From Tolypothrix carrinoi HA7290-LM1 (GTDB lineage Bacteria > Cyanobacteriota > Cyanobacteriia > Cyanobacteriales > Nostocaceae), in contig JAHHIK010000035.1 of the NCBI GenBank assembly GCA_019358935.1, forward strand, positions 1 through 64,000: DNA of 64,000 bases, written 5' to 3'. The first letter of the stretch is position 1. Each line of letters begins with the position of its first letter. The notes under the pieces are model-generated. The model made no database searches. It was given only the letters and a program-made list of their open reading frames with translations, and had not been told where the DNA came from. Of this stretch, positions 2,119-31,518 are shown one piece after another. Made by a program: the position numbers and the translations under genes.

Positions 2119-2210
2119 TGTTAAATTTTGTTAATTTACTTGTCTAGTATATCGCTTTGGCAATGCGTGAAAGTTGCGATCGTGGATGAATTCTATTTCT
2201 TTATCGGGAA

Positions 2211-3691
2211 GTTTCAATTTCGTTGCCCGGTTTCATTTATTTGAAAGGTTAAGGTCATGTTGCCTACTGACGCTATCCGTGTTTCAATCCCGCAAGCGGG
2301 TTTCATTTTTTTGAAAGATAGCGCACGCCGCATTTTCGCTCACGAGCTATAGTTTCAATCCCGCAAGCGGGTTTCATTTATTTGAAAGTAACTATGCATT
2401 TGCATAAAAGCGATCGCTCTTAATTTGTTTCAATCCCGCAAGCGGGAATCATTTATTTGAAAGTGGTGAAAAATTAGGCGTTAAGTTTGAATATCCCGTT
2501 TCAATCCCGCAAGCGGGAATCATTTATTTGAAAGTTTCTGGTATGTCGTAATCTGGTGATGAATTGGCAGGGTTTCAATCCCGCAAGCGGGAATCATTTA
2601 TTTGAAAGTCAAAAGAGCCGCAAAGCTTGGCGTAAATAATTCCTTGTTTCAATCCCGCAAGCGGGAATCATTTATTTGAAAGACGGGTTCTTCCTTTTCG
2701 ATTGGGGGGCAGACTTAATGTTTCAATCCCGCAAGCGGGAATCATTTATTTGAAAGTGGGACTGGGGACAGCGAGTAAGTTACGCAAGTGTTTCAATCCC
2801 GCAAGCGGGTTTCATTTATTTGAAAGGGCAGATCGACAGTACTATGCTGACGTTGCATGGCGGTTTCAATCCCGCAAGCGGGTTTCATTTATTTGAAAGA
2901 ACTGATGTAGATGATCGAGCCACAGCAGTTAATGTGTTTCAATCCCGCAAGCGGGTTTCATTTATTTGAAAGTCAAGAATAGATTTGCGATTATTTCTGT
3001 TTTCAAGTTTCAATCCCGCAAGCGGGTTTCATTTATTTGAAAGTGGAATGTTTCTTTTTTGATGAAACCGCTTGTACTTGTTTCAATCCCGCAAGCGGGT
3101 TTCATTTATTTGAAAGTGGGACTTTATTCCGACGACTAGATGCTGCGAGAGTTTCAATCCCGCAAGCGGGTTTCATTTATTTGAAAGAATTTCAGGATTA
3201 TTTCAAAGGATTCCTGTTTGCAAGGTTTCAATCCCGCAAGCGGGTTTCATTTATTTGAAAGGTAAGTTCCTGTGCTATACACTATCAGTTTTAGTTTCAA
3301 TCCCGCAAGCGGGTTTCATTTATTTGAAAGTAGGACACGAGAAACATATTCTCGATTTTATAAATGGTTTCAATCCCGCAAGCGGGTTTCATTTATTTGA
3401 AAGTTGACTTAAAAATAGCAAATGAATACCGGAAAAGTTTCAATCCCGCAAGCGGGTTTCATTTATTTGAAAGAGTTCGGAGACTTAGAGAAAATGGGGG
3501 GACAACATAGTTTCAATCCCGCAAGCGGGTTTCATTTATTTGAAAGAAGAAATAGATGAGACAACTTTGACTTACTTTGATCGTTTCAATCCCGCAAGCG
3601 GGTTTCATTTATTTGAAAGTGAAGGCTGAGTTGTTACGCGAACATTCTATAATCGTTTCAATCCCGCAAGCGGGTTTCATTTATTTGAAAG
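2211..3691 (-). CRISPR. Type I-D CRISPR array: 21 repeats of 37 bp (sense CTTTCAAATAAATGAAACCCGCTTGCGGGATTGAAAC), 20 spacers of about 32-38 bp
   Basis: Repeats start (+ strand) at 2211 (degenerate terminal copy), 2281, 2352, 2427, 2498, 2572, 2646, 2720, 2790, 2863, 2936, 3007, 3080, 3151, 3225, 3294, 3367, 3437, 3510, 3583 and 3655. Orientation is taken from the ATTGAAAC 3' end, the degenerate distal repeat and the leader next to cas2. Confidence 0.98.
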
Positions 3692-5174: not shown

Positions 5175-5759
5175 TTATACCTCAAGGCGTAATTTTTTGA
5201 TTTCTTTTGGCAGGCAAATTTTCTGCAAGCTGCAATCTCGACATTTTTTAGGATGGTCGATAGGTGGTGGCATTGTTTGCGCGATCGCATTACGTGCAGA
5301 TTGAATAGCTTGTTGCGTAGAACGGGAAAATGCGGGTGTAAAATCTACACGCTGGCGACGACGATTGGCATAATAGAAAATTTCGCCATAACTAATCGTG
5401 TTGCGAGTGCGTTCTTCGAGACACAACGCTGCACCGCAAAGCTGAAAGTGGTCGCACAGATGATTCGCCATCCGACCTTTTTTGAATTCTACGGGAATGA
5501 GTTGGTTGTCTTTTTCCTCAACAGCATCGATAATGCCGTAAATGTGCAAGCGATCGCTCCACACCCATTGATGGCGATAAACTACTTTATCACCCTCCGT
5601 ATATTGACCCTCTGTGTCTACATTTCGGTGTAAATGGCGACCAAGAACCAGATGTTCGTTATCAGCATTTTCTCCCAGTTCGTATTCCAAGTAGAAGCGA
5701 CGAGGGCAGTATTCCCAAGCATTTAAATATGCCAAAGGTAGTGAGTATTGTTCGTTCAT
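5175..5759 (-). CDS. cas4: Cas4
   Basis: YCPRRFY, GIIDAVE, PVEFKKG and the C-terminal CxxCSLxxxC Fe-S cluster motif. Confidence 0.96.
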   Translation of the reverse strand: MNEQYSLPLAYLNAWEYCPRRFYLEYELGENADNEHLVLGRHLHRNVDTEGQYTEGDKVVYRHQWVWSDRLHIYGIIDAVEEKDNQLIPVEFKKGRMANHLCDHFQLCGAALCLEERTRNTISYGEIFYYANRRRQRVDFTPAFSRSTQQAIQSARNAIAQTMPPPIDHPKKCRDCSLQKICLPKEIKKLRLEV

Positions 5760-7553: not shown

Positions 7554-8549
7554 CTAATCTTTCTTACCTTTTTTCTTCAGCGCACCAAAAGATTCTGCAT
7601 AAGCTTTGGTTTGCGCGTATAGTGCGGTCATATTTTCAAATAATTGCGCTTCGTCTTGGTACAGCGTACTTACTTCATCAAGTAAGTCATCTAACTGCGA
7701 ACCAAAAACTAATTTGGTTTTGCGTACTGGTTCATCATTAAGTAAAGTATTTGTCACAACTTGTACCTGATGTAATATATCACCAATTGGAGCATTTACA
7801 TCGCCTTTTAATGCATCATAGAGAGTCTGAGTATAATGCAAATTACTGAAAATTTCGCCATCACAGAAGGCAATCCCCGCAATGTAATTCTTCATTGTTC
7901 CCGTGCGTGATTCTTGAGCGCCGTATCGTTTGGTGCGTAACAAATTTCCCAACACATAAATAAAACCTTCATAGGTAGTATCTCGTAAGGTTTCAATAGT
8001 AGGAAATGTCACTTCGGGTAAAACGTGGTCTAATTCATTGATGCTATGTCGCATTTCTCCACCTTCTTTGTTCATGGTTCCGGCTTCCGAAAGAGCATTA
8101 AAAGTAAAGCTTCGATGAGATTGTTCGTAAGCACTCAATGAAAATGCAGAATCTGAGTAAACTTTAGAACGTTCTGAACCGCCATCACCAATTGCAAAGC
8201 CGTAGATAATACAATCTGGACATTTTTTACACTGTTTATTCTCCATATTGTATTCGCAGTATTTATCTTTATTTGATTCATCAGCAGTGGTAAGATTTAA
8301 ACCACGGAGTAATTCGCGTCCAGCAAGCCTTTCGGGAGTGGTTTGCTTGCGTTTGAACATTACCAAACGACTGATTTTTTCTTTATTTTTTACTCCAGCT
8401 TGAGTGCGTGCGGTGTTAAGAATGCCATCTGTTTGCAAAACTGGAAATGATTGGCTGTGACGCAGCATAATAAAGTGGATATACTTGCCTGTTGCCAAGC
8501 GAGGAAATGCAGATTGAAATTGTGGTTTTAAGCTTTCTAAAAGTTTCAT
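7554..8549 (-). CDS. cas7d: Type I-D Cas7/Csc2
   Basis: FKRKQTTPERLAGR, CKKCPDCIIYGFA, RYGAQESRTG. Confidence 0.95.
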   Translation of the reverse strand: MKLLESLKPQFQSAFPRLATGKYIHFIMLRHSQSFPVLQTDGILNTARTQAGVKNKEKISRLVMFKRKQTTPERLAGRELLRGLNLTTADESNKDKYCEYNMENKQCKKCPDCIIYGFAIGDGGSERSKVYSDSAFSLSAYEQSHRSFTFNALSEAGTMNKEGGEMRHSINELDHVLPEVTFPTIETLRDTTYEGFIYVLGNLLRTKRYGAQESRTGTMKNYIAGIAFCDGEIFSNLHYTQTLYDALKGDVNAPIGDILHQVQVVTNTLLNDEPVRKTKLVFGSQLDDLLDEVSTLYQDEAQLFENMTALYAQTKAYAESFGALKKKGKKD

Positions 8550-8989
8550 GATTCTTCTCCTTGTAATTTAGATTTAGATGAATTTTCTTGCAGTGCTAAC
8601 CAACGATAAGCAAATTCAGCGCCGGATTTGATGCGATTGCGATTTTCTTGAAGTAACGCGCGATCGCCTTTATAAAGTCCAATAAACAATTCCTTGACGC
8701 AGGTAGTTATAAAAGCATGAATTGCAGTCAATTCTCGTGCTTCTCTTGTGGCAAGATCTACCGATTTATCCATTATCAATGGACGTTTATAGACTTCTTG
8801 ACGTTGTATGGCATCTTTGATTTGTCCGGCAGCTTGTAAAATCAAATCTTCCTCATCAACTTGTTGCGGCACAGTCAGAATTACTTCCAAAGCTTTAGAT
8901 ATTGGTAGTAATATTGTGTAACTTGATTCGCCCAATTTAGCTTGGTAAAATGTCCGATATTCTCGTACTAACTTTTCCATCAGTTTCAT
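8546..8989 (-). CDS. cas11d: Cas11d small subunit, internally translated in frame within cas10d (147 aa; alternative TTG at 8992)
   Basis: Internal AGGAGG at 9005-9000 precedes in-frame TTG-ATG. Internal translation of Cas11d is established for type I-D. Confidence 0.8.
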   Translation of the reverse strand: MKLMEKLVREYRTFYQAKLGESSYTILLPISKALEVILTVPQQVDEEDLILQAAGQIKDAIQRQEVYKRPLIMDKSVDLATREARELTAIHAFITTCVKELFIGLYKGDRALLQENRNRIKSGAEFAYRWLALQENSSKSKLQGEES

Positions 8990-11501: not shown

Positions 11502-13631
11502 CTAAAATATTGATGATTCAAATCGAGTTTGGAAAAACTTTTTTAATCGCCATTTCAGAGCTTCTAGTAGCAACGCATCTTGATTAAAAGCACAAGCGTA
11601 AGCTTGTTCCCCACCATCAGTCAAACGATACAAACCAAATAACGGATTGAGTTTGAGAATTTTACTAACTTCCCAGTGGCTATTTAGTGGCTTTTTAATG
11701 ACAGGAACCAAAAAAGCAAGTAATTTATTTTGTTTCAAACAAGCGATAACATCAGATTGAGGATGTCCGATTATACTCAGCTTGTCTACTAAATAAAGTT
11801 GACAAAAATGCAATTCGCTACTCTTGCGGCTGCAATGCAAGCTAATATCTTCTCGTTTGTCTAGCCAACTTTGAACCCGCAGATAAACTTTGATATAATC
11901 CTCTGGAAATTCTTCTTCTCCATGACCAGATTTAGATGCTGCTTGCAGATATGTTTCTCGGTCTGTGACTTCTACCATTGCATAAGGTAAAAATCTCAAC
12001 AGGTCATAAGTGTAAAATCTATTATTGTCCCAAACCGCAGCTTGTAAAGTCGAACCACCTCGAAACCGCAAAAGTTCTTGTTGCGTTGCTTTTTCGACAT
12101 CAGTTTTTTGCTTTTTACACCAATAACCACGTACTGATTCGATGCTTTGGGAATAGACGCGCTGCAAATCTTCAGTCATGCGATCGCGTACAATTTGACT
12201 TACCTTGGCGTTTTCCTGACTCATCCGCGTCAGCATCCCCTGTGCTTGCAATGCACCCCAACGCTTGCGATATTCATCGAATTCTTTGGGTGGGTCAAAT
12301 GCATAAGCGATGACATCTGTCAACTCGCTTCGTTCCACACTTTGACCGAGACTGAGTTTTTCTTGCAGTTTTGCCATTACCCAAGGTGTGCGATCGCCAA
12401 CCAAAATAAAAGCTGTGTATGCAGAAAAGTCAGGATGTCTTCCCAAACGACCCAAACGTTGCACCATAGTTGCCGAGTCGCTACTCTCAAAAATCAACAG
12501 GTGAATTTTAAAGTCAACCCCAACATCCACCGCAGATGTTCCCACAATCAAAACTGGTTGCTTGGCATCTTTAAGTTTAGCTTGGATTTCTAACCTTTCG
12601 TGACGGTCAATGCGTCCGCTAATTTCTCTAACAATAACTTCTGGGAGTAATTCCTGAAGTTTCCGAGTTATCAAACCCGCTTTGGCAACAGAATTGATAA
12701 TAATCAAACCTCTACCTTTCGACTCTGCATTCAATATTTTTTGAATATCAGAAGCCTTTTGGGTCAACCACGATAACGTATCTGTCTCTTTTAATTCCAC
12801 AAACTCTAATTCAACACGTTGGAGAATTTGCCGATAGCCAGGAGTATCTTCACTCGCATAAACTCCCTCAATTTCTGCAATCTTAAACCCAGTTTGCCGC
12901 AGTTGGTCAATGAAACCTGATTTGGGAGTCGCGGAAGTAAACAAAAATCGTCTGGGACGTGACTGATTTTCTTGGGAACGACGGATCAGCGTCATGCTAT
13001 TTAAAACCGCTGCTTCTTGATGCGGTCCGAAAATCGGAAACTCATCAAACACCCACAAATCTGGAAATTCTGCCAGCATTAAAGGTAGCAAGTCACCACC
13101 ATAAGCTGAATCTCGATACTGGAAGTGAGTAATGTAATGAAAAATATCAGGATTGGTCAGCAAAAACGGTTTATGTTCGATAGCTAGTAATAATTCATGA
13201 AACTTATTACTTTTTTCTGCTTGTTTGACTCGACGACTTAGTTCTGCACCAAATAAGCGGTCAACTCGTTGAGAAGCATCCAAACCAAACAAATCATGAT
13301 AGCGTTTTTGCTGTTCGGTCTGGTCTTCCACCAACTCGATGGTAGGATATAACCCCATTATGCGAAAATTAGGATCGAGCAATCCCGGTAACGAAGCACC
13401 TAGAGATTTTCCATCACCAGTTGCAGACTTATTAAAAATAATGTCTGCTTCCCCTTGGATAACGGCAGCACAAGTTTTTGCTTGGTGAGACGAGAGTGGG
13501 CAGGTGCAACCCGGAGGGGGTTTAAGATTGGATGCTTGTTGGTATACTTGACAAGTATATGTGCATCCCAGCGGACAATTGCCCACTCCCAGATTTAGTT
13601 GGGAGTAGAGAGGGTGTAAAAAAAGCTTCAT
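11502..13631 (-). CDS. cas3: Type I-D helicase Cas3'
   Basis: SATGDGKS (Walker A), DEFP (motif II variant), TSAT, VDVGVDF, QRLGRLGRH; no HD domain. Confidence 0.95.
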   Translation of the reverse strand: MKLFLHPLYSQLNLGVGNCPLGCTYTCQVYQQASNLKPPPGCTCPLSSHQAKTCAAVIQGEADIIFNKSATGDGKSLGASLPGLLDPNFRIMGLYPTIELVEDQTEQQKRYHDLFGLDASQRVDRLFGAELSRRVKQAEKSNKFHELLLAIEHKPFLLTNPDIFHYITHFQYRDSAYGGDLLPLMLAEFPDLWVFDEFPIFGPHQEAAVLNSMTLIRRSQENQSRPRRFLFTSATPKSGFIDQLRQTGFKIAEIEGVYASEDTPGYRQILQRVELEFVELKETDTLSWLTQKASDIQKILNAESKGRGLIIINSVAKAGLITRKLQELLPEVIVREISGRIDRHERLEIQAKLKDAKQPVLIVGTSAVDVGVDFKIHLLIFESSDSATMVQRLGRLGRHPDFSAYTAFILVGDRTPWVMAKLQEKLSLGQSVERSELTDVIAYAFDPPKEFDEYRKRWGALQAQGMLTRMSQENAKVSQIVRDRMTEDLQRVYSQSIESVRGYWCKKQKTDVEKATQQELLRFRGGSTLQAAVWDNNRFYTYDLLRFLPYAMVEVTDRETYLQAASKSGHGEEEFPEDYIKVYLRVQSWLDKREDISLHCSRKSSELHFCQLYLVDKLSIIGHPQSDVIACLKQNKLLAFLVPVIKKPLNSHWEVSKILKLNPLFGLYRLTDGGEQAYACAFNQDALLLEALKWRLKKFFQTRFESSIF

Positions 13632-13693
13632 TTCATTAACCCTGTGTTAGCTGAACACAGTTTATTACCCATTAGGGGAAAGTCGTAGTCAAA

Positions 13694-13736
13694 ATTTGAT
13701 ATCAATCTTTATCTATTGAAGCTTTTGATATCAAAT
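13694..13736. promoter_or_regulatory. Inverted repeat ATTTGATATCAA-N19-TTGATATCAAAT upstream of cas3', candidate regulator operator
   Basis: Perfect 12-bp arms, each containing the palindrome TTGATATCAA, 63-105 bp before the cas3' ATG. Confidence 0.5.
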
Positions 13737-13942
13737 AGAGAAAATTACTAAATGCAAACTTTGCCAGCAATTTAAATTCAATTACTGGCGTATTGTACTA
13801 CTTCTACAAAGTGAAGATAGCGAAAACACTACTTGTTGTTGGTTTCTACGTTACTACAATGTCGTAATCGTAGATAGAATACCCACACCCGAATCACCAG
13901 TATTTTCCGCAAGCTTCCTTTTGAAGGAGCTACAATTTAGCT

Positions 13943-14137
13943 TTAGTGCAACAAAGGAGGATTCAAATCCTTTTTCTGTGCATATATTCTGCAAGCCGTT
14001 ACAGAAACCTGCTTCCAAGCGGATAATCGGATTCGGTTAGTGTTTCCTGTCGCCGTTGATTGTTCAAGCAACAAATCGTAACTTTGCTCAATATTGAGAT
14101 GCAAAGATTCTGAAACTGTAGTAAAATTATGGTTCAT
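13943..14137 (-). CDS. Small hypothetical protein (64 aa, MNHNFTTVSESLHL...), candidate Cascade-repressed gene
   Basis: AAGGA about 10 nt before the ATG. Hairpin AGCTCCTT-CAA-AAGGAAGCT just after the stop (13912-13931). Lies downstream of the promoter targeted by the solitary repeat unit. Confidence 0.5.
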   Translation of the reverse strand: MNHNFTTVSESLHLNIEQSYDLLLEQSTATGNTNRIRLSAWKQVSVTACRIYAQKKDLNPPLLH

Positions 14138-14313
14138 TTGAGATTCAGTCCTTTTGGATAAATGACTAATTTGAGGCAAAAAGTATTGTTACTTGCCTCT
14201 AAGAATAAGAACTTTAAGTAACCTCCGTTGGAATGCCACTTCCTGCGGGGTTTTTGCTTAGGTTTTTACTCTTAATTAATTTTTACCACCTGCACGCCCA
14301 TTAAGTCAAGATA

Positions 14314-14337
14314 CTATTTGATTATATGTACAGTTAC
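14314..14337 (-). promoter_or_regulatory. Promoter -10 (TATAAT, 14326-14321) overlapped by a protospacer-like site with GTA PAM
   Basis: Minus strand reads GTA-ACTGTACATATAATCAAATAG, matching 14443-14463 at 17/21 positions. Confidence 0.7.
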
Positions 14338-14405
14338 CAAAAAAACTCTAATCCGGCTTCTGCCGACTTACTTAATGGTATTATTTTGGTAGGAAAGGCG
14401 GTTTT

Positions 14406-14482
14406 GTTTAATGTAATGAGTTCCTGCAAGCGGGATTGAAACACTGTCCATTTTATCAACTAGCCTTTCCCAAAGATTAAAC
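14406..14482 (+). ncRNA. crRNA-like RNA: solitary degenerate repeat (14406-14442), about 22-nt spacer, possible collapsed second repeat CTTTCCCAAAGATTAAAC (14465-14482)
   Basis: GTTTAATGTAATGAGTTCCTGCAAGCGGGATTGAAAC is 37 bp. Its last 13 nt are identical to the array repeat and the hairpin CCTG-CAAG-CGGG is preserved. Confidence 0.8.
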
Positions 14483-14528
14483 CATTAGAAGTTCCCTCGG
14501 ACAGCAAGAGATACTTGCACCGCGAACT

Positions 14529-15494
14529 ATGTCCTCGAACCAAAACAAAGATTACAACCAAATCGCCTTTGCCCTAGAAATCCTCAAACAGCTAGCAGAG
14601 AAGCCACGGAAGCGAGAAGAATTAGTTGACTTGCTATCTCCATTTATGGAAGCACACGGCAAGTCATCAGACGACATGGACATCAAGCAAAAACTCACCC
14701 GCACAATTCGCAAGCTGAGAGACTGCGGTATAGAAATTAAAAGTGCGCCTCACCATCCTTACGAACTGGTAGAGTCAAATTTCCCCGTTATTCTCTCAAC
14801 CGAACAGCGACAGGCATTAGCACTAGCAGCTTATTTCTTTGCGGGGATGGGCTTTTCTTTCCAAGCAAGCCAAATTTTGCGGATTGGTAATCTCAAAGAA
14901 TCTGACATTCCAGAATTTGTCAAAGTTAATTTTAGCCCTCCTGTTGATTACAGCGAGAACAAACTTGATGTTATTGTTCGCCACCTTCAGGAAAGATTTC
15001 AACAACAACGTCGTTATACTATTACCTACCAAAGCAACAAAGGAGGACAGCGTATTTGGGATATTGACCGCTCAGAATTGCGTTTTCATAACGGTGTTCT
15101 TTACCTTTTTGCATTTATTCCCGATTGGAAGTCGTGGCGATTTCCAACTTTCCCCAACATCGACCAAAATCATATATTTAGAGTAGATAGAATAGTTAAT
15201 GTTGGTCCTGCTTCTGATGTACATTGGCTATCTTGCGAGTTCCCCAAGTTGGAAATTCACTACCGCATGAGTGGTGACTTAGCAAACTACCAACCCCGTC
15301 GCGAGGGAGAACAAGTAATTCATCGAGATGCGGAAGGTAAATTTGTTGATATTGCTACACTAGAAGATTATTGGTTTTGGTTTCGACAGCGAATGTTGCA
15401 ATATGGGGCAAATGTTCAAATTTTAGCCCCAGACTTTTTAGCAAAAGAAATTAAACAGGAGCATGAAAAGGCATATGAAAAATATTGCTCATAG
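14529..15494 (+). CDS. WYL-domain transcriptional regulator associated with type I-D
   Basis: N-terminal wHTH-like region (LTRTIRKLRDCG), LYLFAF...FRVDRI WYL core and LQYGANVQILAP WCX tail; divergent from cas3'. Confidence 0.92.
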   Translation: MSSNQNKDYNQIAFALEILKQLAEKPRKREELVDLLSPFMEAHGKSSDDMDIKQKLTRTIRKLRDCGIEIKSAPHHPYELVESNFPVILSTEQRQALALAAYFFAGMGFSFQASQILRIGNLKESDIPEFVKVNFSPPVDYSENKLDVIVRHLQERFQQQRRYTITYQSNKGGQRIWDIDRSELRFHNGVLYLFAFIPDWKSWRFPTFPNIDQNHIFRVDRIVNVGPASDVHWLSCEFPKLEIHYRMSGDLANYQPRREGEQVIHRDAEGKFVDIATLEDYWFWFRQRMLQYGANVQILAPDFLAKEIKQEHEKAYEKYCS

Positions 15495-20447: not shown

Positions 20448-21134
20448 CTAACTCCTAACTATTGTACCATTTGCCGTAATGGCTGTTGATGAATCTTCTA
20501 TGTGACCATTTAATGAGCCAGAAAGGTCAGGTACAACAACGGGAATAAGTCCAAAGTTGGTAACAATCTCTTTGATTTCCTGTATATCCCCTGGCGTGAA
20601 AGCAGAACTTGCCAAAATCGTGATTTGTCTGGGACAAGCATCTAAATCATCACTTTTTTGGGGAATCTCCTTAACTATACTTTCGACAGCAGCAGCAAAG
20701 CCATCTTGCAATGCACCTTTAAAATCAGGTGTAGAGACAACCACAATCGGTAGATAATCTAATTCTGGGTGACGGTAGCGAATTTCCTTGACAAAACGCC
20801 CCATATCATCTCCTCTGGTTTCCATCAATCCAGTCGTGCATAAACCGATAATTTCTGGCTTGCACTTCTGCACCAAAGTGAGGATTGCTTCTTCAACATT
20901 CTCCTCCCCACCTAGAACCGTCGCAACTTCTGTCATCGCTGTTGTGGAAAGGGGAATACTGCAACGGAAATGCCGCGCTAATACAACTTTAGCTAAGGCA
21001 GTACAGCCTTGGGAACCGTGTAATAAAGGCATTATTCCCTTCAATCCTAAAAAAGCTAAAGCTGCACCCAAAGTTTGGCTTTGCTTGAGGGGATTAACTG
21101 CAACTGACGTGCTGGTAACGCTAAGAATTGCCAT
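20448..21134 (-). pseudogene. nifN: NifN, N-terminal half only (228 aa)
   Basis: VNPLKQSQTLGAALAFLG, LHGSQGC, PLSTTAMTE. Stops after TANGT, beside a REP-like hairpin at 20419-20447. Confidence 0.85.
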
Positions 21135-21136
21135 TT

Positions 21137-22486
21137 TTATACCTCTGCATTCCAAGGAGCGGGCTGACGTACTTCTGACCATACAGGATTGTAAAAAGCT
21201 GCATACAGTTCTTTTGCTACCTCTAATATGCCCAGATAGCCTGCATAGGGATGGTTGCGTTCGATGTTAATGTTGAGGAAAGGAATCTTAGCTGTTAGCG
21301 CAGTGTCTTGAAAGCGATCGCCTGCAATCAACATATCAGCTTGATTTTCATTAATTATTTGTAGCATTTCTTCAGGACTATCTTGTTGGATGATGCTGTC
21401 CTCACCCAGCAAACTTTTGATTCTAGCTGTTTCTGACTCAGTACTGTTGAGAGTACTAGTAGCAATAACTTTCATCCCCAACTTCTGAGCCGCAAAGATA
21501 ATCAACCAACTCTTAAAACTTCCGGTATAAAGGACAACGCGCTTACCTTGTAATTGGCTACGATAAACAGCAAGTTTCTCATCTAATGCGGCAGTTTCTT
21601 CAGCAATTAGCTTTTCTGTACGTTCTTGTAAATCTGCATCACCCAATTTCGCGGCAATATTTCGCAGACATTGATTGATTTGCTCTACACCATAGATAGA
21701 CTCTTCAATGTAGGGAATACCATAGCGTTTCTGCATCCAAGATGCCATACTGGTTAATGCTTTAGCCCAAAGCACTACGTTGAGCTTGGCACGATGAGCG
21801 TAACAAATTTCCTTATAGCGAGCATCGCCGGTAATTTTTGCCAAAACTCGGATACCTAATTTCTCCAAAAGCGGTAAAACGTTCCACATTGCACCCGCGA
21901 TGTTATATTCACCAATCAAATTGATGTCTAATGGTGTAGTAAAATCAGGTTCAGCCGTGCCGATAACGTGTTCTAGTAAAGCTTCACCAGCAACGCGGTT
22001 GCCCATACTTTGACTACCAATAAATCCTGGGCAATGTACGGGGATAGCAGGTATTCCTGTTTGCTCGGTGGCATCTTTGCAGCAGGCTTCAATGTCATCA
22101 CCAATCATGGCAGTGATACAGGTAGAGTAGACAAATACCGCAGCAGGTTTGTAGCGTCTTTGCAATTCTATAATGCCTTTGTAGAGCTTTTTGGCTCCAC
22201 CAAAGATGATATCGCTTTCTTCTATTTCACTGGTAAAGCGAATCTTGTACAATGTTGAACCACTTGTAAGACTGCCATAACTTCCCCACATACTTGCAGC
22301 ACAGCCACTCGGTCCGTGGACTACATGAGCAGCATCCACTATTGGTAGGAGGGTAATCATTGCGCTATCAAAAGCACAACCACCTTGAGCGGTTCCAGGT
22401 TGGGGTAGTGTAGACTTTTTCTTTTGCGGATTATCTTTGCATCCGGGGGTAAGAGAATCGTTGATTTGTCCTGAGGTTGGTTTCAT
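21137..22486 (-). CDS. nifE: Divergent NifE (FeMo-cofactor scaffold alpha subunit)
   Basis: QGGCAFD, HVVHGPSGC, FVYSTC, INLIGEYNIAG, LYTGSFKSW, HPYAGYLG. Confidence 0.9.
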   Translation of the reverse strand: MKPTSGQINDSLTPGCKDNPQKKKSTLPQPGTAQGGCAFDSAMITLLPIVDAAHVVHGPSGCAASMWGSYGSLTSGSTLYKIRFTSEIEESDIIFGGAKKLYKGIIELQRRYKPAAVFVYSTCITAMIGDDIEACCKDATEQTGIPAIPVHCPGFIGSQSMGNRVAGEALLEHVIGTAEPDFTTPLDINLIGEYNIAGAMWNVLPLLEKLGIRVLAKITGDARYKEICYAHRAKLNVVLWAKALTSMASWMQKRYGIPYIEESIYGVEQINQCLRNIAAKLGDADLQERTEKLIAEETAALDEKLAVYRSQLQGKRVVLYTGSFKSWLIIFAAQKLGMKVIATSTLNSTESETARIKSLLGEDSIIQQDSPEEMLQIINENQADMLIAGDRFQDTALTAKIPFLNINIERNHPYAGYLGILEVAKELYAAFYNPVWSEVRQPAPWNAEV

Positions 22487-22549
22487 GGGGATTAAAGTCT
22501 AGGGATTAGGAACTGGGAAAAGAGAGATTTTTATGTGTGGGTTATCCAT

Positions 22550-22744
22550 CTCAATACGGTTCGGTTAACCCTAGAAAATCCCCCCAACCCACGCCACTTT
22601 GCTCAAGTCGGGAAACCCTTCCTGTGCAAGTGGCTCCCCTTTTTAAGGGGGGCTATGTCTCTTAAAACCCCCTTTTTTAGGGGGTCGCCGCAGGCGGGGG
22701 GATCAGCAGCTAGGGAGAAAAAGTCTTATCCAAACCGTATTGAG
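22550..22744. mobile_element. 195-bp MITE
   Basis: TIRs CTCAATACGGTTCGGTTAA / TTATCCAAACCGTATTGAG; 8-bp direct repeat TTATCCAT at 22542 and 22745. Confidence 0.8.
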
Positions 22745-22898
22745 TTATCCATAAGAACGCAACGTATGTAATAAAAGGGAATGAGAAATTCTACCTCCCA
22801 TTCCCAAACAATCAACCAAAAATTAGGAGAACACAAAAAACTAAACTATTAGTTTTGCCGCGAGAACATTGACAGATTAATGAATCGCGCGGGAATAT

Positions 22899-22913
22899 CT
22901 ATGCATACTTCAT
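22899..22913 (-). other. Mini-ORF ATG-AAG-TAT-GCA-TAG (MKYA) with strong SD GGAGGTG in the nifH-nifE spacer
   Basis: Minus strand reads CTGGAGGTGTAAGAATGAAGTATGCATAG. Confidence 0.4.
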
Positions 22914-23138
22914 TCTTACACCTCCAGGTCGTTTCTACGATTCGCGAGAAGGTGGGTTTTTTAGCCCACCTGGTTGCTTAGGGGAGACCGCAAAAAAAAG
23001 ATACCAGCCGTGTTCTTAATTGCTCGTTGTGTGTCGTGGATCTGGATATGACGGACCGGATCTTTTTTCGATCTCATGTGCCTTACCCGTCTGAAGCAAC
23101 TTCTATTACTTCTTAAATAGAAGCAAAAGCTTTACTTG

Positions 23139-23227
23139 CAGGACTTACGCAAAAAATTGCCGAAAGCCTTATTTTCACGTAGCGGCAATTCATGAATTGC
23201 TGCACTGTCCGTTTTGCGTAAGTCATG
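23139..23227. mobile_element. CAGGACTTACGCA-ended MITE carrying a GTAG REP-like hairpin
   Basis: TIRs, 5-bp direct repeat ACTTG on both sides, internal GCAATTCATGAATTGC palindrome. Confidence 0.8.
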
Positions 23228-23238
23228 ACTTGTTTTAG

Positions 23239-24210
<972 letters not shown>

Positions 24211-24497: not shown

Positions 24498-25628
24498 TTA
24501 TATCGTCGCTACAACATCCCCGGTTTTACTCGTGTCATAACCACCGAGAACTTCTAATTGAGAGTGAATCAAGCGATTTCCTAAAGTACCGAGTAACTGC
24601 TTTACTGGTGCTTCTTCTAAATATTCCTTGAGAATCACTAAATCGTATCTTGAGGAATGCAGAGGTACAAATCCCAGCCCAAAGGAAGCAGCTATAGATG
24701 CCGTACTGATGCCTGCGTTGGCAATACCTGATACTACGGCTTCGGCAACTTCTTGATGACTTTTAACGATATGGTCAAATCCTTTAACAGCGTGGAATGG
24801 TAGTTTTTCTTCTTGCAGTTTATGTTCCAAAAGCAAACGAGTACCAGCACCGAGTTCGCGGTTGACAATCATTGCTTTGGTGTCTACCAAGTCCGTTACT
24901 GTTTTAATTCCCATCGGATTACCAGACTCGACTAAGATTCCTTCTTCCCAAACACCAAGAGTAATTAAAACAGCTGCTCTTTCGGCTAGTAGTTCACGAA
25001 CAAAAGGAGTATTATGCTCTCCAGTTTCCGGATCGTATAGATGCATTCCGGCAATGTGAGCTTCACCTTTGCATAAACTATGCAATGCAGCCATGCTGTT
25101 GGCAAAGTTATGCTGAACTCGCAGTTGAGGATACCAGCGTTCCGTAGCTTGCGCCCATAATGAGAGTACAGGCGCACAGCCGACAATCACAACCGTGTTA
25201 TGGAGTTTGTCTATATCATCAAGAAGCCTAACCCGGACTGTGTTTGCATTTGAGAGGCTATTAATCTTACCATCAGCCGGAATCATCTCCAAGCGAAAAG
25301 CATCTTTCCCAACAAGAGGATATGCTATCCATTGCCCCCCAATCCGCGCTAGACTGACTGGCTGTTGTTGACTGCAAGAGATAGATTTGGCAAGAACTGC
25401 TTCAATTTCAAGTAGATCCTCCTCGAACCAGAATAGATCCGCGACTTGACAGCCAAGTACTTTGGCTAAACGAAGTGCGATCGCAACTGAAGGAGCATAC
25501 TGTCCTGACTCTACACCACTAATTGTCTGACGGGTAACTTTAGCTAGGTTAGCCAACTCTTGCTGACTCATACCTAAGCGAGTTCTCATTGACTTCAAGT
25601 TGTTACGGAGTTCACTATCCTGCTTCAT
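24498..25628 (-). CDS. XRE-HTH plus molybdate-binding PBP domain regulator (VnfR-like architecture)
   Basis: MSQQELANLAKVTRQTISGVESG HTH; GEAHIAGMHL and VNRELGAGTRLLL PBP motifs. Confidence 0.9.
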   Translation of the reverse strand: MKQDSELRNNLKSMRTRLGMSQQELANLAKVTRQTISGVESGQYAPSVAIALRLAKVLGCQVADLFWFEEDLLEIEAVLAKSISCSQQQPVSLARIGGQWIAYPLVGKDAFRLEMIPADGKINSLSNANTVRVRLLDDIDKLHNTVVIVGCAPVLSLWAQATERWYPQLRVQHNFANSMAALHSLCKGEAHIAGMHLYDPETGEHNTPFVRELLAERAAVLITLGVWEEGILVESGNPMGIKTVTDLVDTKAMIVNRELGAGTRLLLEHKLQEEKLPFHAVKGFDHIVKSHQEVAEAVVSGIANAGISTASIAASFGLGFVPLHSSRYDLVILKEYLEEAPVKQLLGTLGNRLIHSQLEVLGGYDTSKTGDVVATI

Positions 25629-25915
25629 TGGCTTCTCTATCTCTTGCGTTACAAAAAGCCGATCGCGGATTTACCTAATATAAGACATAGCAATATTCGA
25701 GGATAGTATATTTTACTTTGCCTCAAGATTACGACTGCTTTCGCCCTTTCGATTCCCTATATAAAAAGAATATCATACATTTTGCCAATTTGCTTGCGTC
25801 CTGACAAAAATTTTTGCGCTCTGACAAATTATATTATCTGCTGGTAATTAATACTCAAAGGCTTTTTAAATGGTCATACTCTGTTTTTATATGCCACGCT
25901 TTATTTACTATATTT

Positions 25916-26010
25916 CAGGACTTACGTAAAATTGTCTCAAAAGCCTGATTTTTCGTAGCGGTAATTCATGAATTACCGCTACGGGAGCATATTTTGTTGC
26001 GTAAGTCCTA
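25916..26010. mobile_element. CAGGACTTACG-ended MITE with REP-like hairpin
   Basis: 5-bp direct repeat TATTT; internal CGTAGCGGTAATTCATGAATTACCGCTACG. Confidence 0.82.
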
Positions 26011-26197
26011 TATTTATAGTCCGACTTCGACCTCTGAGCAGCAAAGTATCTAAAAACAGTTTATTTGGTATCGGAAGAATTAAAAAATTATTATTTTCTT
26101 GTCAGGGGAAATATATTTTCAGTAAAATAACTGAAGAAAACTATTTTTACTCGTGCTATATTTAACTGTGCTGAAATCAATAAAAGAAAATCAGGGT

Positions 26198-26407
26198 ATG
26201 AAAGTTAGCGCTCGTAATGCTATCAAAGGTACAGTTAAAACAGTTGTGCCTGGAGCAGTCAATACAGAAATAACCTTAGAAATTGCGCCAGGAATAGAAG
26301 TGACTGCAATAATCACAAAAATCTCAGCGGAAGAACTGAAAATTTCTGAGGGAAAGATGGCATACGCGGTAATTAAATCATCTGATGTGTTACTTGCTGT
26401 AGATTAA
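26198..26407 (+). CDS. mop: Molybdenum-pterin-binding (TOBE/Mop) protein
   Basis: MKVSARNAIKGTV...AVIKSSDV, 69 aa. Confidence 0.93.
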   Translation: MKVSARNAIKGTVKTVVPGAVNTEITLEIAPGIEVTAIITKISAEELKISEGKMAYAVIKSSDVLLAVD

Positions 26408-26426
26408 AAGATTAAGTGTCTAGAAA

Positions 26427-26464
26427 AATAAGCGGCTTGCTTATCGGGAGCAAGCCGCTTATTT
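26427..26464. terminator. Bidirectional hairpin terminator between mop and the porin gene
   Basis: AATAAGCGGCTTGCT-loop-AGCAAGCCGCTTATT. Confidence 0.7.
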
Positions 26465-26585
26465 GTGTTTAAATTCGGAATATAACAATCAATAAAAACC
26501 CTCCCCAGTAACGAGGAAGGCTTATTGGTGTGAATGATAAAATTGAGCCTACTATGAAGGAGTGCAAATATAAAGGAAGAATTAT

Positions 26586-28490
26586 CTAAAACCTGAATGT
26601 AGAGCGGATAATTCCCTCATATATAGTGTCATTGTTGCTATTGTGTTCTGGGTTAAAGATGACTATTAATCCTGGCGTAATTGAGAGATTGCTATTAACT
26701 TGATAGCGATACAGTGCTTCCAAATGATAGGAAGTATCGCTGTCTGTACGACGGTCAACTATTCGATTTGTAGCTGTAGGGGTGAAGGTACTCGGACCAT
26801 AGTCATTACTTGTTACTTTGGGCGGTTGACCAAAAATAATACCAGCCAAGTTGCCTTTTTTACCCAAATCGGGGAAACCAAGAGTTACAGCCCAGTTCCA
26901 AATATCGGCTTTGTCACCTCTGTTAACATTATTTCTTGCAGGGTTATTACCTGAAGCTATTTCCGCAGTTGCTTGAGTATATCCAACCCAACCAGAAAGG
27001 ACGAATTTAGGGTTAAAGCGATAGCTAGTTTGTAAACCGTAATGATTGGCAGAGGTGGCAATATTGTTACCAAAGGGAGTAGCTGCAAAAGCACTACCTT
27101 CAGAACCAGAAACGTTTACATCACCAGTTACAACACCATTGACAACACCGCTGAAGTAAGAGTGCGCGTAAGTTAAAGCGATGGTCGCATCTTTGTTTGG
27201 TTGGATAGCTAATTGCGTTAAAGCTCCATAACTACCATCAAATAAACCTCTATTAATACCGGGTTCATTACCATTGCGAGCCAAATAACCCGCAGACAAG
27301 GTAAATGTGTCGTTCAATTTGAGTACCGCACTTACCCCAGAACCTAGACCAACAGCAAGACCTGTGTTGCTTGCTCGGTAGATGGGTGAAAATCGACCAA
27401 AGCGGGAGAGTGCGCCTGTTGGTGCGGCGGCAAACAAGGGATTAAGAGTGTTAAAGTTATCGAAGAACGACCCACCAATAGCATCAACGGTGACACTGAG
27501 CCGATCGCCGACTGGAAAGTTGTAGAATATTTTCCCTATATCTATTGTATTTTCCTGCCGAACTGTGGTGTCATAACTCAAGCGAGTCATGTTTGTGCCA
27601 GTAACTGGCGAGTTAAAAGGAATGGTGTTATTTGCTTTGAGAAGAATTCGCAAGCGATCTTTGCCGAAGAAGCTGGAATCGAAGATTAAACGAACGCGAT
27701 CGCTAAAAACTGCATTATCTTGCAACTTGGAACCCGATGGACCATAAGCACTCGCTCTGGCTGTATTCCTCTGTGCTGCGGTGATACTAGGATTATTAAT
27801 TTCATTCAACTGGTCGGAGTTGAGCGCTCTGTCTCCACCAAACACACTCCCAACACTAAAAATTGCATCTCCAGTCAAGTTGGTAGTCGCGGAAAATTGC
27901 TGACTTTCCACAACTGCTATACGCGCTTCTAAAGGGTCTATCCGTCCTCGCAGTTCCGTTAACCCATCAGCATACTCTTGTTGCAGTCTTTGCAGAGTTC
28001 CCAAATCTTCTTTAGTAACCAGGTCAGCCGTACTTGTGGCAATCAGTTCTTGAACCCGATTCAAACAAGCATTCAAACCAGCAGCGAACTCATAGCGAGT
28101 CATTGCCCGATTGCCTCTAAAAGTACCGTTTGGGTAGCCGGCAATGCAACTATAGCGTTCAACCAATGATTGTAAAGCTTGGAATGCCCAATCTGTTGGT
28201 TGCACATCCGAAAGTTGCGAGACTGAAGTCACCTGATCCATTATGTATGGATCTTGATTGCTTTCGTCATTGATTTGCCGATTCTCTGCCGATGAAATAT
28301 CCTTAACAGGTACTATTGGTGTTTCCGAAACAAAATTATTTTCTGTCTGCAACTGAGTGAGTTGAGTATTCAATTCCACATCGGTAGTAGCTTCTCGCAC
28401 TGTATTTGCTGATGCTGTTTGTGCTGTGACAACACTAGCAAATAACAGTATTGGAGCTATCCACAAAGATAACGCAAGAAAACTAGACAT
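26586..28490 (-). CDS. SLH-domain/OprB-type cyanobacterial outer-membrane porin
   Basis: QVTSVSQLSDVQPTDWAFQALQSLVERY SLH motif; C-terminal RSTFRF. Confidence 0.93.
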   Translation of the reverse strand: MSSFLALSLWIAPILLFASVVTAQTASANTVREATTDVELNTQLTQLQTENNFVSETPIVPVKDISSAENRQINDESNQDPYIMDQVTSVSQLSDVQPTDWAFQALQSLVERYSCIAGYPNGTFRGNRAMTRYEFAAGLNACLNRVQELIATSTADLVTKEDLGTLQRLQQEYADGLTELRGRIDPLEARIAVVESQQFSATTNLTGDAIFSVGSVFGGDRALNSDQLNEINNPSITAAQRNTARASAYGPSGSKLQDNAVFSDRVRLIFDSSFFGKDRLRILLKANNTIPFNSPVTGTNMTRLSYDTTVRQENTIDIGKIFYNFPVGDRLSVTVDAIGGSFFDNFNTLNPLFAAAPTGALSRFGRFSPIYRASNTGLAVGLGSGVSAVLKLNDTFTLSAGYLARNGNEPGINRGLFDGSYGALTQLAIQPNKDATIALTYAHSYFSGVVNGVVTGDVNVSGSEGSAFAATPFGNNIATSANHYGLQTSYRFNPKFVLSGWVGYTQATAEIASGNNPARNNVNRGDKADIWNWAVTLGFPDLGKKGNLAGIIFGQPPKVTSNDYGPSTFTPTATNRIVDRRTDSDTSYHLEALYRYQVNSNLSITPGLIVIFNPEHNSNNDTIYEGIIRSTFRF

Positions 28491-28530
28491 TTACCTCACA
28501 CCTCTATACCAATTTAATTGATACTGTAAA

Positions 28531-28558
28531 ATCATACTACCAATTAAGTCGGTGTCAA
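28531..28558 (-). promoter_or_regulatory. Candidate porin promoter TTGACA-N16-TATGAT
   Basis: Direct read on the minus strand, about 40 bp upstream of the ATG; contains a TACCAA-N5-TCGGTG motif copy. Confidence 0.5.
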
Positions 28559-29385
28559 GTAGCAAATAGAAGCGCATCTCCCAATCACAAATCAATTCTT
28601 TTTAATTAATCTGCTTGAGGGTTTGGGGTAATACCAAGTTCTTTCTTGGCACGTTTTAACTATTTCGGTGAGAATCTTAAGTTCCCTGTACGCTTCTTTT
28701 GAAAGTTTGCCACCTGGAAAGTAGGTTAGAAATGTATCCCACCCGACAAAGTGAAAACTCTTGTAAATTTGCATTAAAAACGAGATATTCTGGCTTGAAT
28801 TGTCCGTGATAAGAACTACGAGGATAAAGAAAATCCGTATCTATTAGCGATAAAATCAGATTCTTGCCGCATAATTAGTTGTAATCACTCTGCTTTACTA
28901 AGATGATGAAATTTTTCAACTAAGCAATTTATGCTCTTGTAAAAAATCTACGTGCCTTGCTTTAAAAGTTGCTTAGACTGAGCAATTTCACAGCAGTAAC
29001 CGACAAGCAAAGAGTAATAAGGTTCCACCAGTAATTACGTAACGTACTAGACATACACAGAAAAATTATATAGAATACTTCAACGGTAAACAATGTTGGT
29101 AAATAGTTTATACCAGTATTTTTGGTACTAAACCGTATCAAGGGTTACATATTTTCCATGCCGAAGTCAATAACTAAAGAAAACTGGTTAATATTACTAG
29201 CTTTAATATTTAACTAAAACGAATATGGTCAATCAGAAGTTTGCGCTCCTCTGATGTTTGAAATCAAGCCATCCTTGTTCTTTTCCGGGCATAATTTTAC
29301 CAATTTATGCGGTAAGTTATGATTATGTTGGTATTATTACTACCAAGGAGTAATTTTATGAAAAAATCTCACGATCGGGTTGACG

Positions 29386-30177
29386 ATGAACAGAAGACGA
29401 TTTTTTACCGCCCTTAGTGTAGCAGTTGCCAGCCTGTTGCTCACAATTGGCTTGCCGCTGCTGAGTGACTCTACAGTGGTAGCATCTAACGGTAACTTAC
29501 TTGTTTCTGCTGCCGCTAGCTTAAAAGAGACGATGGAAGAAATTAAGACTGTTTACCAACAAAGTAAACCAGGAACCAACATCAACTATAATTTTGGGGC
29601 TTCTGGTGCTTTATTACAACAGATTCAGCAAGGTGCGCCGGCTGATATTTTTATTTCTGCCGGGAAAAAGCAGGTGGATACATTAGAACAAGCAGGACAG
29701 TTGGTTCCGGGTACTCGTGCGGTGTTGGCAAAGAACCGTTTAGTTTTGGTTGTGCCAAAGAATGTTGCCGGTGTTACCAGTTTTTATAACCTGACGGGAG
29801 ATAATATCAAAAAAATAGCGATCGGCGAACCTAGAAGCGTACCCGCAGGACAATACGGTGAGCAAGTCCTGAAGAAATTGGGCATTTTTGAGAAAGTAAA
29901 AGGCAAATTCGTCTATGCCAATAACGTGCGTCAAGTTCTAGCAGCAGTGGAAAGTGGTAATGCTGATGCGGGTCTGGTTTATAGAACTGATGCCAAAATC
30001 TCCGACAAGGTGAAAATTGTTGTTGCTGCTGATGAAAAATATCATTCGCCAATTGCCTATCCGATGGGAGTCCTGAAAAGCAGTAAAAACGTTGCTGCTG
30101 CTAAGGATTTTGTCCAGTTCTTGAGCAGTGAGCAAGCTAAGGGTGTACTCACTAAATACGGCTTTCTTTTGCCTTAA
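29386..30177 (+). CDS. modA: Molybdate ABC transporter substrate-binding protein (copy 1)
   Basis: SAAASLK, NFGASGAL, GAPADIFISA, SVPAGQY; NRRRFF signal. Confidence 0.95.
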   Translation: MNRRRFFTALSVAVASLLLTIGLPLLSDSTVVASNGNLLVSAAASLKETMEEIKTVYQQSKPGTNINYNFGASGALLQQIQQGAPADIFISAGKKQVDTLEQAGQLVPGTRAVLAKNRLVLVVPKNVAGVTSFYNLTGDNIKKIAIGEPRSVPAGQYGEQVLKKLGIFEKVKGKFVYANNVRQVLAAVESGNADAGLVYRTDAKISDKVKIVVAADEKYHSPIAYPMGVLKSSKNVAAAKDFVQFLSSEQAKGVLTKYGFLLP

Positions 30178-30224
30178 TGCAATAATACGCGCGTTGCATT
30201 CTTAAGACACATTGTCAACAGTTA

Positions 30225-30318
30225 TAAAACTTACGCAAAACATATCGTTTGTAGCGGTAGTTCATGAATTACCGCTACAAGCGAATACAGTGTCCAACCG
30301 CATTTTGTGTAAGTCCTG
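30225..30318. mobile_element. Degenerate CAGGACTTACGCA-family MITE with REP-like hairpin
   Basis: TAAAACTTACGCA...TGTGTAAGTCCTG; direct repeat AGTTA. Confidence 0.7.
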
Positions 30319-30322
30319 AGTT

Positions 30323-30546
30323 AACGTGAGTTCGACGAATAAAATATGACCCCTCTCCAAACCTCTCCCCGACCTCTCCCTAACCCTCCCCTACAAGGGG
30401 AGGGAAGAGGAGCAGCTTTTATTACTGGAGAGGCTTTGAAACCCTATTTTTCGTTCAAACTAGGCGCTTTATTTCCCCCTCTCCATGTAGGAGAGGGGTG
30501 CTTTTTGCTTTGCAAAAAGCGGGGAGAGGTTCGTCGAATTCACCTT
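30323..30546. mobile_element. 224-bp MITE inserted at the end of the previous one
   Basis: TIRs AACGTGAGTTCGACGAA / TTCGTCGAATTCACCTT; direct repeat GAGTT at 30318 and 30547. Confidence 0.75.
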
Positions 30547-30663
30547 GAGTTAAAAGGCATTCTCATTTCTACATATTTTCTCTAATCACAATTTTTATTG
30601 CCAAATTAGTAGGTAAACTAGTTGGTAGTCTTGATAAAACAACAAGATTTTTAGAAGCTGCTA

Positions 30664-31488: not shown

Positions 31489-31518
31489 ATGTAAGTAATT
31501 AAACCCATAAAGTGAATT

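Follow-up and report, generated by a model that had tools for sequence, protein, structure and literature searches.

A solitary repeat with a short guide in a cyanobacterial type I-D CRISPR locus as a candidate CrePA-like guard cassette

What a single, degenerate CRISPR repeat with a short spacer is doing between cas3' and a regulator gene is the question raised by a locus of Tolypothrix carrinoi HA7290-LM1. The stretch of DNA analysed (64,000 nt, the window in what follows) carries on its minus strand a complete type I-D cas locus, which ends in a CRISPR array. A sequence-only reading had proposed that Cas6 processes an RNA from this repeat and that Cascade uses it to silence the adjacent divergent promoter, forming either a CRISPR-guarding toxin-antitoxin or an autorepression circuit. 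We explain it best as a CrePA-like cassette lodged in the type I-D locus, in the gap that separates cas3' from the WYL regulator gene.

Setting of the cassette

The cas3' gene (11502..13631, minus strand) is the first of the type I-D operon and is followed in order, on the same strand, by cas10d, cas7, cas5, cas6, cas4 and cas1, and then by a cas2-sized gene assigned as cas2 by its position. TIGR03158, TIGR03174 and TIGR03159 score above cut-off, and Pfam Csc2, Cas6, Cas4 and Cas1 are matched. The array (2208-3691, minus strand) has 21 repeat copies and 20 spacers, its repeats being of two variants arranged in blocks. Two more short arrays, with other repeats and CRISPR-like spacing, occur in the same genome on contigs C153 (about 12036-12352) and C119 (about 8430-8885). 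Motif II of Cas3' (window position 13037) reads DEFP, not DEFH; as DEFP occurs in 11 of 39 cas3' motif matches among the fetched loci, some genomes being counted twice, it is a recurring helicase-motif variant. Elsewhere in the window (20448-24204 and 24498-33393) lie genes that we take, from their translations, to be nifH-like, nifE-/nifN-like and molybdate regulator and transport genes.

The WYL/WCX-domain regulator gene (14529..15494, plus strand) gives weak Pfam WYL and WCX matches just under cut-off. Its nearest named relatives are cyanobacterial, and its position, divergent from the cas genes, is that of Synechocystis Sll7009 (PMC10212523). The guide cassette sits in the 897-bp gap between cas3' and this gene. 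Two palindromes upstream of cas3 (13685..13735), GTAGTCA-N5-TGATATC and TTTGATATCAAA, share the gap and are probably the operator of the WYL regulator at the cas3 promoter; the first is kept, as judged by eye, in all 15 intergenic regions compared and is present in 4 of 4 loci without the cassette. Elsewhere the gap upstream of cas3 holds guide-less insertions, presumably a PIN toxin-antitoxin-like two-gene pair (L110, genome G028), a Uma2-like nuclease (L139, G159) and a transposase (L098, G051).

The solitary repeat and the precursor of the guide RNA

The solitary repeat (14406..14442, plus strand) is the lone, degenerate element that the sequence-only reading had described: 37 nt long, on the strand opposite to the array and 10,715 bp from it, with 26/37 and 24/37 identities to the two array repeat variants. 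It retains a Cas6-type hairpin of 5 bp, in the same register as in the array repeat, and the ATTGAAAC end, so that both the hairpin and the 8-nt 5' handle behind it (14435-14442, plus strand) are kept as had been claimed; in type I-D crRNA an 8-nt handle likewise follows the stem (PMC10212523). The hairpin loop is the complement of the array form (CAAG vs CTTG). The guide, a mini-spacer of 21 nt, comes next (14443..14463, plus strand). Behind it a collapsed repeat-like element had been reported, which is indeed repeat-like but is better described as the remnant 5' half, the first 19 nt, of a second repeat (14465..14483, plus strand, 14/19 identity ungapped, without hairpin) than as an internally collapsed one. 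In two related genomes, G060 and G227, a full second repeat stands at this place.

A putative extended -10 promoter of the precursor, TGn-TATTAT, lies at 14376..14384 (plus strand) and would give a start at about 14390-14392; among 8 loci examined, 7 have TGn-TAnnnT at the matching place, some 20 nt ahead of the repeat, and the eighth has TATTCT. By folding, a 5' leader arm (14392..14403, plus strand) pairs with the guide end and the sequence behind the guide (3' arm, 14458..14470, plus strand, i.e. guide positions 16-21 plus 7 nt), in the window through GGAAAGGC with GCCTTTCC, which joins the predicted first transcribed bases to the end of the guide. The arms vary in sequence between clades while the pairing is kept, being GTGGGG with CCCCAC in loci L005 and L010, and AAGAGTTAG with its complement in L116 and L120. 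A leader-trailer duplex is found in all 13 loci with a solitary repeat, and in 11 of them at most 17 of 300 shuffles equal it; the remaining two (44/300 and 71/300) are G060 and G227, which keep the full second repeat. The pairing fits a stem that would substitute for the lost second repeat. It should be noted that this evidence consists of duplexes assessed locus by locus; automatic alignment across 8 loci did not recover the stem because its arms are not alignable. A stem of 5' leader and 3' trailer is absent from the portions of the related-system literature available to us, in which the one-repeat crlRNA of type I-C ends in a 3' hairpin (bioRxiv 2024.12.27.630466).

The target and its PAM

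The guide matches minus-strand positions 14334-14314 (the target or protospacer, 14314..14334) with mismatches at positions 6, 10, 12 and 18, just as first reported, and GTA in front of the target (14335..14337, minus strand) and TATAAT within it (target positions 9-14) are both present. Guide positions 12 and 18 are, like position 6, free to mismatch. Position 6 is unpaired in type I systems generally (PMC10212523), the freedom at positions 12 and 18 is stated for I-F1 (bioRxiv 2023.03.03.530964), and GTN is the type I-D PAM (PMC9123187, PMC10212523).

Of all GTN-flanked sites in the 7.96-Mb genome, this target alone has no more than one mismatch if positions 6, 12 and 18 are set aside. Eight sites have no more than four mismatches in total, and the one other that is GTN-flanked, on contig C25, has three, two of them at positions 2 and 7. 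Neither 1000 shuffles of the region nor 1000 of the spacer gave an equal match in the 300 bp upstream, where the 20 array spacers reach at best 6-9 mismatches outside positions 6, 12 and 18, against one for the guide.

Guide and target in related loci

Close orthologues were obtained by a DNA search of 389 genomes of the family. The whole cassette has a patchy distribution, being found in 5 of the 388 other genomes (G060, G227, G048, G123 and G101), always between cas3' and the WYL gene, and where cas3 adjoins WYL the guide and the cargo are absent together. G060 mismatches its target at positions 6, 12 and 18 only, and two tandem targets occur in G060 and G101. Covariation of spacer and target in orthologous loci, by which the sequence-only reading had suggested checking its claim, does occur: G123 shows joint changes of guide and target at positions 2 and 4, and G227 at position 21. 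There are also mismatches in the seed, at positions 3 and 4 in G227 and at 4 in G048, beside the one at position 10 in the window. Short arrays with full second repeats follow the guide in G060 and G227. The guides of G060 (L051, about 8100-8270) and G123 (L054) are followed by canonical repeats with normal-length spacers, and their mini-array looks as if it had recombined with a true array.

More distant loci came from three sources: 10 loci among relatives of the WYL gene, which yielded L005 and L010; 49 regions upstream of I-D cas3' from the 63 of 301 genomes with a match, several cut by contig ends, which yielded the guides of L116, L120, L127 and L136; and one plasmid, which yielded L144. 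An exact repeat pattern was found in no metagenome stretch. For the 13 solitary-repeat loci we searched for the best 17-nt match within 300 bp, on both strands and with no PAM rule. The best nearby match is GTN-flanked in 12 of the 13 loci, and in 11 of 13 it is equalled by none of 500 shuffles; the others are L136 (24/500, with what by eye seems to be a 1-nt indel) and L127 (235/500), where the target and the front of the cargo are lost. As its target is missing, L127 was left out of the mismatch count, and L063, whose guide is that of L010, was counted once with it. Over the 12 loci thus counted there are 12 mismatches at position 6, 9 at position 12 and 5 at position 10, with none at 1, 2, 5, 8 or 9; the match score ignores positions 6 and 12, so mismatches there were not selected by the scoring. 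Six of these 12 loci are close kin, and they amount to about six or seven guide types. Guides with different seeds retain their own targets in L005, L010, L116, L120, L136 and L144.

Three loci, L005 (5749-5802), L010 (about 5200-5255) and L116, carry two outward-facing targets with the PAMs in the middle, one toward the cargo and the other toward the promoter region of the guide itself, which suggests that through the second the guide and the WYL gene may be under negative feedback. In L005 the targets are palindromes.

Taken together, GTN in 12 of 13 loci, a fixed mismatch at position 6 and the covariation of guide with target give good support to a Cascade-guided repressor RNA. This pattern is what a Cascade guide would predict, and it would not be expected of an operator bound by a protein, of a hairpin or of an array in decay. 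That the element has no guide function, being a decayed mini-array, a Racr-like RNA decoy for Cas6 or Cascade, or a protein-bound inverted repeat, is very improbable, since the GTN PAM, the freedom at positions 6 and 12 and the joint change are not predicted by it, although it would account for the short arrays and full second repeats behind the guide in G060 and G227 and for the palindromic targets of L005.

The targeted promoter

The TATAAT inside the target had been taken as the -10 element of the silenced promoter. This assignment is not supported: among six close orthologues the hexamer is TATAAT in two, TATTAT in one and TTTAAT in three, and no -35 is seen in front of it. What recurs, in 10 of 12 loci, is a promoter-like pair downstream of the target, a TTGACW-like hexamer separated by 16-18 nt from a -10 of the TA(A/T) type, a permissive pattern counted without shuffle control; a strict promoter scanner found neither candidate. 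The -35 is TTGACA in L010, L120 and L136, and L144 has TTGAAA-17-TACAAT with the -35 inside the target. In the window the probable cargo promoter (14280..14309, minus strand) would consist of TTGACT (14309-14304), 18 nt and a weak, TG-extended TAAAAA (14285-14280), with a start at about 14273, where a long hairpin of the transcript begins. This element is fairly likely to be the targeted promoter of the cargo. The target ends 4 nt before the likely -35, and across loci the distance ranges from overlapping to about 20 bp clear; a target adjoining the -35 is also known for the V-A CreR (bioRxiv 2023.03.10.532045).

The cargo proteins

The ORF behind this promoter (13943..14137, minus strand) encodes 64 aa, a candidate toxin or defence protein, and is preceded, 16 nt before its start, by AAGGA as ribosome site. 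All 6 orthologous loci keep this frame open, whereas the other five frames have stops in all six. Pairing of the ribosome site is predicted above 0.85 in 4 of 6 orthologues, through local partners that vary among them; of 191 control genes, called crudely, 15% reach this mark. The value in the window, 0.77, is below it. Each of the 12 target-bearing loci has a small ORF behind its target, that of L120 being shortened at its 5' end.

The 64-aa protein has 13 homologues, itself included. Another 4, more remote, are small proteins; of the 8 matches in the search for remote homologues, three long and repetitive ones were dropped as chance. The family is absent from the viral contigs, phages, plasmids and 400 other order-sample genomes searched, and a metagenome search gave one match, covering 22 residues. 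No Pfam, PHROG or NCBIfam family is matched at E below 0.1, and a PDB sequence search gave no significant match. AlphaFold2 models the protein as one long two-stranded hairpin (pLDDT 83.7, pTM 0.42, 17 sequences), whose strands alternate polar and non-polar residues by inspection. Neither this model nor that of the second family (see below) reached E<=0.001 or Z>=5 in fold searches. Highest-ranked for the 64-aa model were long hairpins of proteins that form oligomeric barrels, such as pore stems, phage tail collars and flagellar rings, at best with Z 3.9, rmsd 5.7 and 56 aligned residues, a result that any long hairpin would yield. In the ESM Atlas the top scores, 0.90 and 0.86, belong to unnamed clusters. 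A four-copy complex prediction scored 0.01 against a mark of 0.42 and bears neither way. As the protein has neither a family nor a significant fold match, the case for its toxicity rests on context.

Other loci carry other cargo. A second family of 88-99 aa, in L005, L010, L136 and L144, possibly has its N-terminal part in common with the 64-aa family (profile probability 92.6, from shallow profiles), its model being an alpha/beta fold unlike the 64-aa hairpin. It was not found in viral contigs, and one weak match in 401 genomes of the phylum was dismissed. A third family of 84-91 aa, in L116 and L120, is unrelated to the others; a homology to both, suspected by eye, was rejected with profile probabilities of 0.3 and 0.5.

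L144 (NZ_CP151101.1, 5586-14909) shows a relative of the second family, with its own guide, on a Nostoc plasmid beside a different Cascade subtype. Its cassette lies between cas3 and a 605-aa cas8-sized gene ahead of a DevR-type cas7, with cas1d, and its PAM is GTA. A DevR-type (I-A/I-B-like) Cascade is here paired with cas1d; the cas8-sized gene and the one in the cas5 position match no Pfam or NCBIfam family.

Proposed circuit and alternative explanations

In the circuit proposed, transcription from the extended -10 promoter would start at about 14390 and give a short RNA. The 5' leader of this RNA would fold back on the guide end through the conserved pairing described above, and Cas6, as in known I-D processing, would cut below the repeat hairpin to leave the 8-nt handle and a guide of 15-21 nt. 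Cascade would then read the GTA PAM and bind 14334-14314, in a duplex too short for cutting by Cas10d/Cas3', and from there would cover the UP region and probably the -35 box, 4 nt away, of the leftward promoter. The 64-aa protein would be kept off while Cascade sits beside the promoter. If Cascade were lost or blocked by an anti-CRISPR, the protein might be made and the cell be arrested or die, leaving either a host addicted to its own CRISPR system or an aborted infection; for both this release and its outcome we see a chance at or just above even. Transcription, Cas6 cutting, binding without cleavage and repression, taken together, we hold highly probable from the comparison of loci. Toxicity of the 64-aa protein is evenly poised, and the full chain of a CRISPR-guard cassette, toxic protein included, is favoured by a narrow lean. 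Of the circuit first proposed, the PAM-flanked guide to the divergent promoter region survives, backed by 12 other loci, and TATAAT as the -10 of the promoter is not supported; its toxin-antitoxin half is plausible and pure cas autorepression is the weaker half.

The same guide mechanism could instead hold a conditionally useful accessory or anti-phage protein, freed upon anti-CRISPR attack in the CRISIS pattern, an alternative that is unlikely. The guide evidence applies to it equally, the cargo ORFs are swapped among at least two unrelated families, and a type I-C crlRNA controls defence systems (bioRxiv 2024.12.27.630466). In genome G166, moreover, the Cascade genes are intact and so is a second-family ORF behind a TTGACT-17-TAAACT promoter, and no guide was found beside the ORF or in trans (the array pattern is empty, though another repeat could escape it); this guide-less cargo is the main fact against a lethal toxin. 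Against an anti-phage role, the protein matches no defence family in Pfam, PHROGs or NCBIfam and with 64 aa is small for a stand-alone enzyme, and the boundary between such a role and a conditional toxin is thin.

It is improbable that the unit is a CreR-type autorepression, with the targeted promoter mainly feeding the cas operon by read-through and the ORF as passenger. The promoter is directed toward cas3, no intrinsic terminator was found from the ORF to cas3 on that strand, and the CreA of H. hispanica acts as a repressor at its toxin promoter as well as at that of cas8 (bioRxiv 2023.03.10.532045). However, cas3' has conserved upstream elements of its own, among them a palindrome that 4 of 4 loci without the cassette also have, and the targeted promoter therefore seems to serve the cargo specifically; moreover, an ORF follows the target in every one of the 12 target-bearing loci. 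The two units are also divided by a conserved inverted repeat (13763..13789), which lies between the cargo and the cas3 promoter, has no U-tract, recurs by eye in 6 of 6 close orthologues and is possibly the 3' end of the cargo mRNA; G048 has about 400 bp extra there.

Still less probable is that the repressed product is a structured, CreT-like toxic RNA, the ORF being incidental or a translation scaffold. The cargo mRNA would have a structured 5' leader (14173..14273, minus strand) with a long hairpin (14273-14201) and a second one (14199-14173); these leader hairpins are conserved, folding z-scores range from -0.4 to -2.5, and two-hairpin leaders look similar by eye in L005 and L010. A 15-nt inverted repeat lies within the ORF (14118-14104 with 14010-13996). 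Concerning rates, the cargo dN/dS is 0.26-1.18 with a median of 0.55 (15 pairs) and that of cas3 is 0.09-0.21 (10 pairs), a weak constraint by comparison which would let the RNA matter more than the protein, and the ORF dS is below that of cas3 in 9 of 10 shared pairs. The ORF of the window genome is 78-83% identical to the other five, closer than cas3 (72-74%) or WYL (71-73%), which points to a recent move of the cassette or else to constraint on its RNA; later transfer of the cassette accounts for the low dS equally well. The consensus fold of the leader from 6 orthologues has 28 pairs, with two-sided compensatory change in none, and Rfam gave one match only, at chance level, on 13500-14700. 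Nor is there a conserved rare-codon mini-ORF, codons 2-5 varying in 6 of 6, whereas the frame is open with a ribosome site and its variable columns number 18, 18 and 28 by codon position.

The guard cassette with a toxic 64-aa protein thus remains the preferred reading. A wider version of it, which we regard as doubtful, would make it a cyanobacterial guard-cassette family mobile between type I-D and GTN-PAM I-A/I-B-like Cascade, with the leader-trailer stem replacing the second repeat and setting the guide length below the cleavage threshold, and with the predicted amphipathic beta-hairpin of the 64-aa toxin oligomerising into a membrane pore or fibre.

Comparison with known systems

CRISPR-like regulatory RNAs are an established class for I-B, I-C, I-E, I-F and V-A. 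The unit in the window shows two features of that class, namely an ectopic degenerate repeat with a Cas6 hairpin and 8-nt handle, and a partial spacer match beside the cognate PAM with position 6 free. Racr are solitary repeats on mobile elements that act as decoys, without a cognate host target. Here the repeat lies within the host's intact I-D locus and a PAM-flanked target is present.

The closest likeness is to CrePA of the Acinetobacter baylyi type I-F system (bioRxiv 2024.01.05.574328), where a CRISPR-like RNA and Cascade likewise repress the promoter of a small protein inside the cas locus and release upon Cascade loss is the proposed logic, as it is here. As in CrePA, what stands behind the targeted promoter is a gene for a protein, here the 64-aa ORF, and it lies inside the cas locus. 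CrePA differs in being I-F, against type I-D in cyanobacteria, and here the cassette lies upstream of cas3' beside a WYL regulator; its toxin CreP is a KilA-C domain protein, whereas the 64-aa cargo is not KilA-C, has no family and is a candidate toxin. The available text of the CrePA preprint does not mention I-D. The cassette of L144, between cas3 and the cas8-sized gene, is in the classic CreTA/CrePA position.

CreTA, a type VIII toxin-antitoxin (PMC8501985), shares with the unit a degenerate first repeat with an 8-nt handle, a decayed second repeat, and seed pairing that covers positions 1-5 and 7-11 and leaves position 6 free. However, CreT is a tRNA-sequestering RNA with a mini-ORF that has consecutive rare codons after its start, and here the ORF has 64 codons in the window, 64-66 among orthologues, with codons 2-5 variable in all six; a GGAGG in the leader has, by inspection, no start codon after it. 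CreR (bioRxiv 2023.03.10.532045) likewise has a degenerate mini-CRISPR and a target adjoining a -35 element, and I-D examples are predicted there (Fig. S7). It targets the promoter of the effector operon and is often toxin-less; here about 600 bp separate the target from the cas3-proximal elements downstream, and a separate promoter and ORF intervene.

That type I-D mini-arrays control cargo genes is a prediction of 2023 (Shmakov et al., bioRxiv 2023.03.03.530964). Their I-D mini-arrays lie, as here, opposite cas3, with a PAM-flanked partial target in the promoter of variable cargo, and in the clade of their Fig. 6B the cargo is upstream of the cas genes and sister loci are empty, as found here. 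The cargo listed comprises TA genes, regulators and others; the main text does not mention cyanobacteria, Nostoc or WYL. In the literature searched, whose coverage of subscription papers is poor, we found neither an experimentally studied I-D case nor an account of this cargo.

The novel features are the cargo family, whose place is taken by other small ORFs in related loci, and the leader-trailer stem. The latter may explain the defined 3' end and the non-cutting state of a one-repeat guide, and could be useful for I-D CRISPR interference tools. At least two undescribed small-protein families under putative CRISPR control are candidate toxins or anti-phage effectors, and could be used to reveal type I-D anti-CRISPRs in a live cyanobacterial screen. 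The unit is a ready test case for type I-D Cascade-guided repression, so far only predicted in the searched literature, for which its natural variants are a source of compensatory guide/target pairs. As proposed it works like CrePA, yet without the toxin domain of CrePA, the mini-ORF of CreTA or the effector promoter target of CreR, and if the toxin-guard reading is true, type I-D would have in it the first guard of the protein-toxin kind in that literature.
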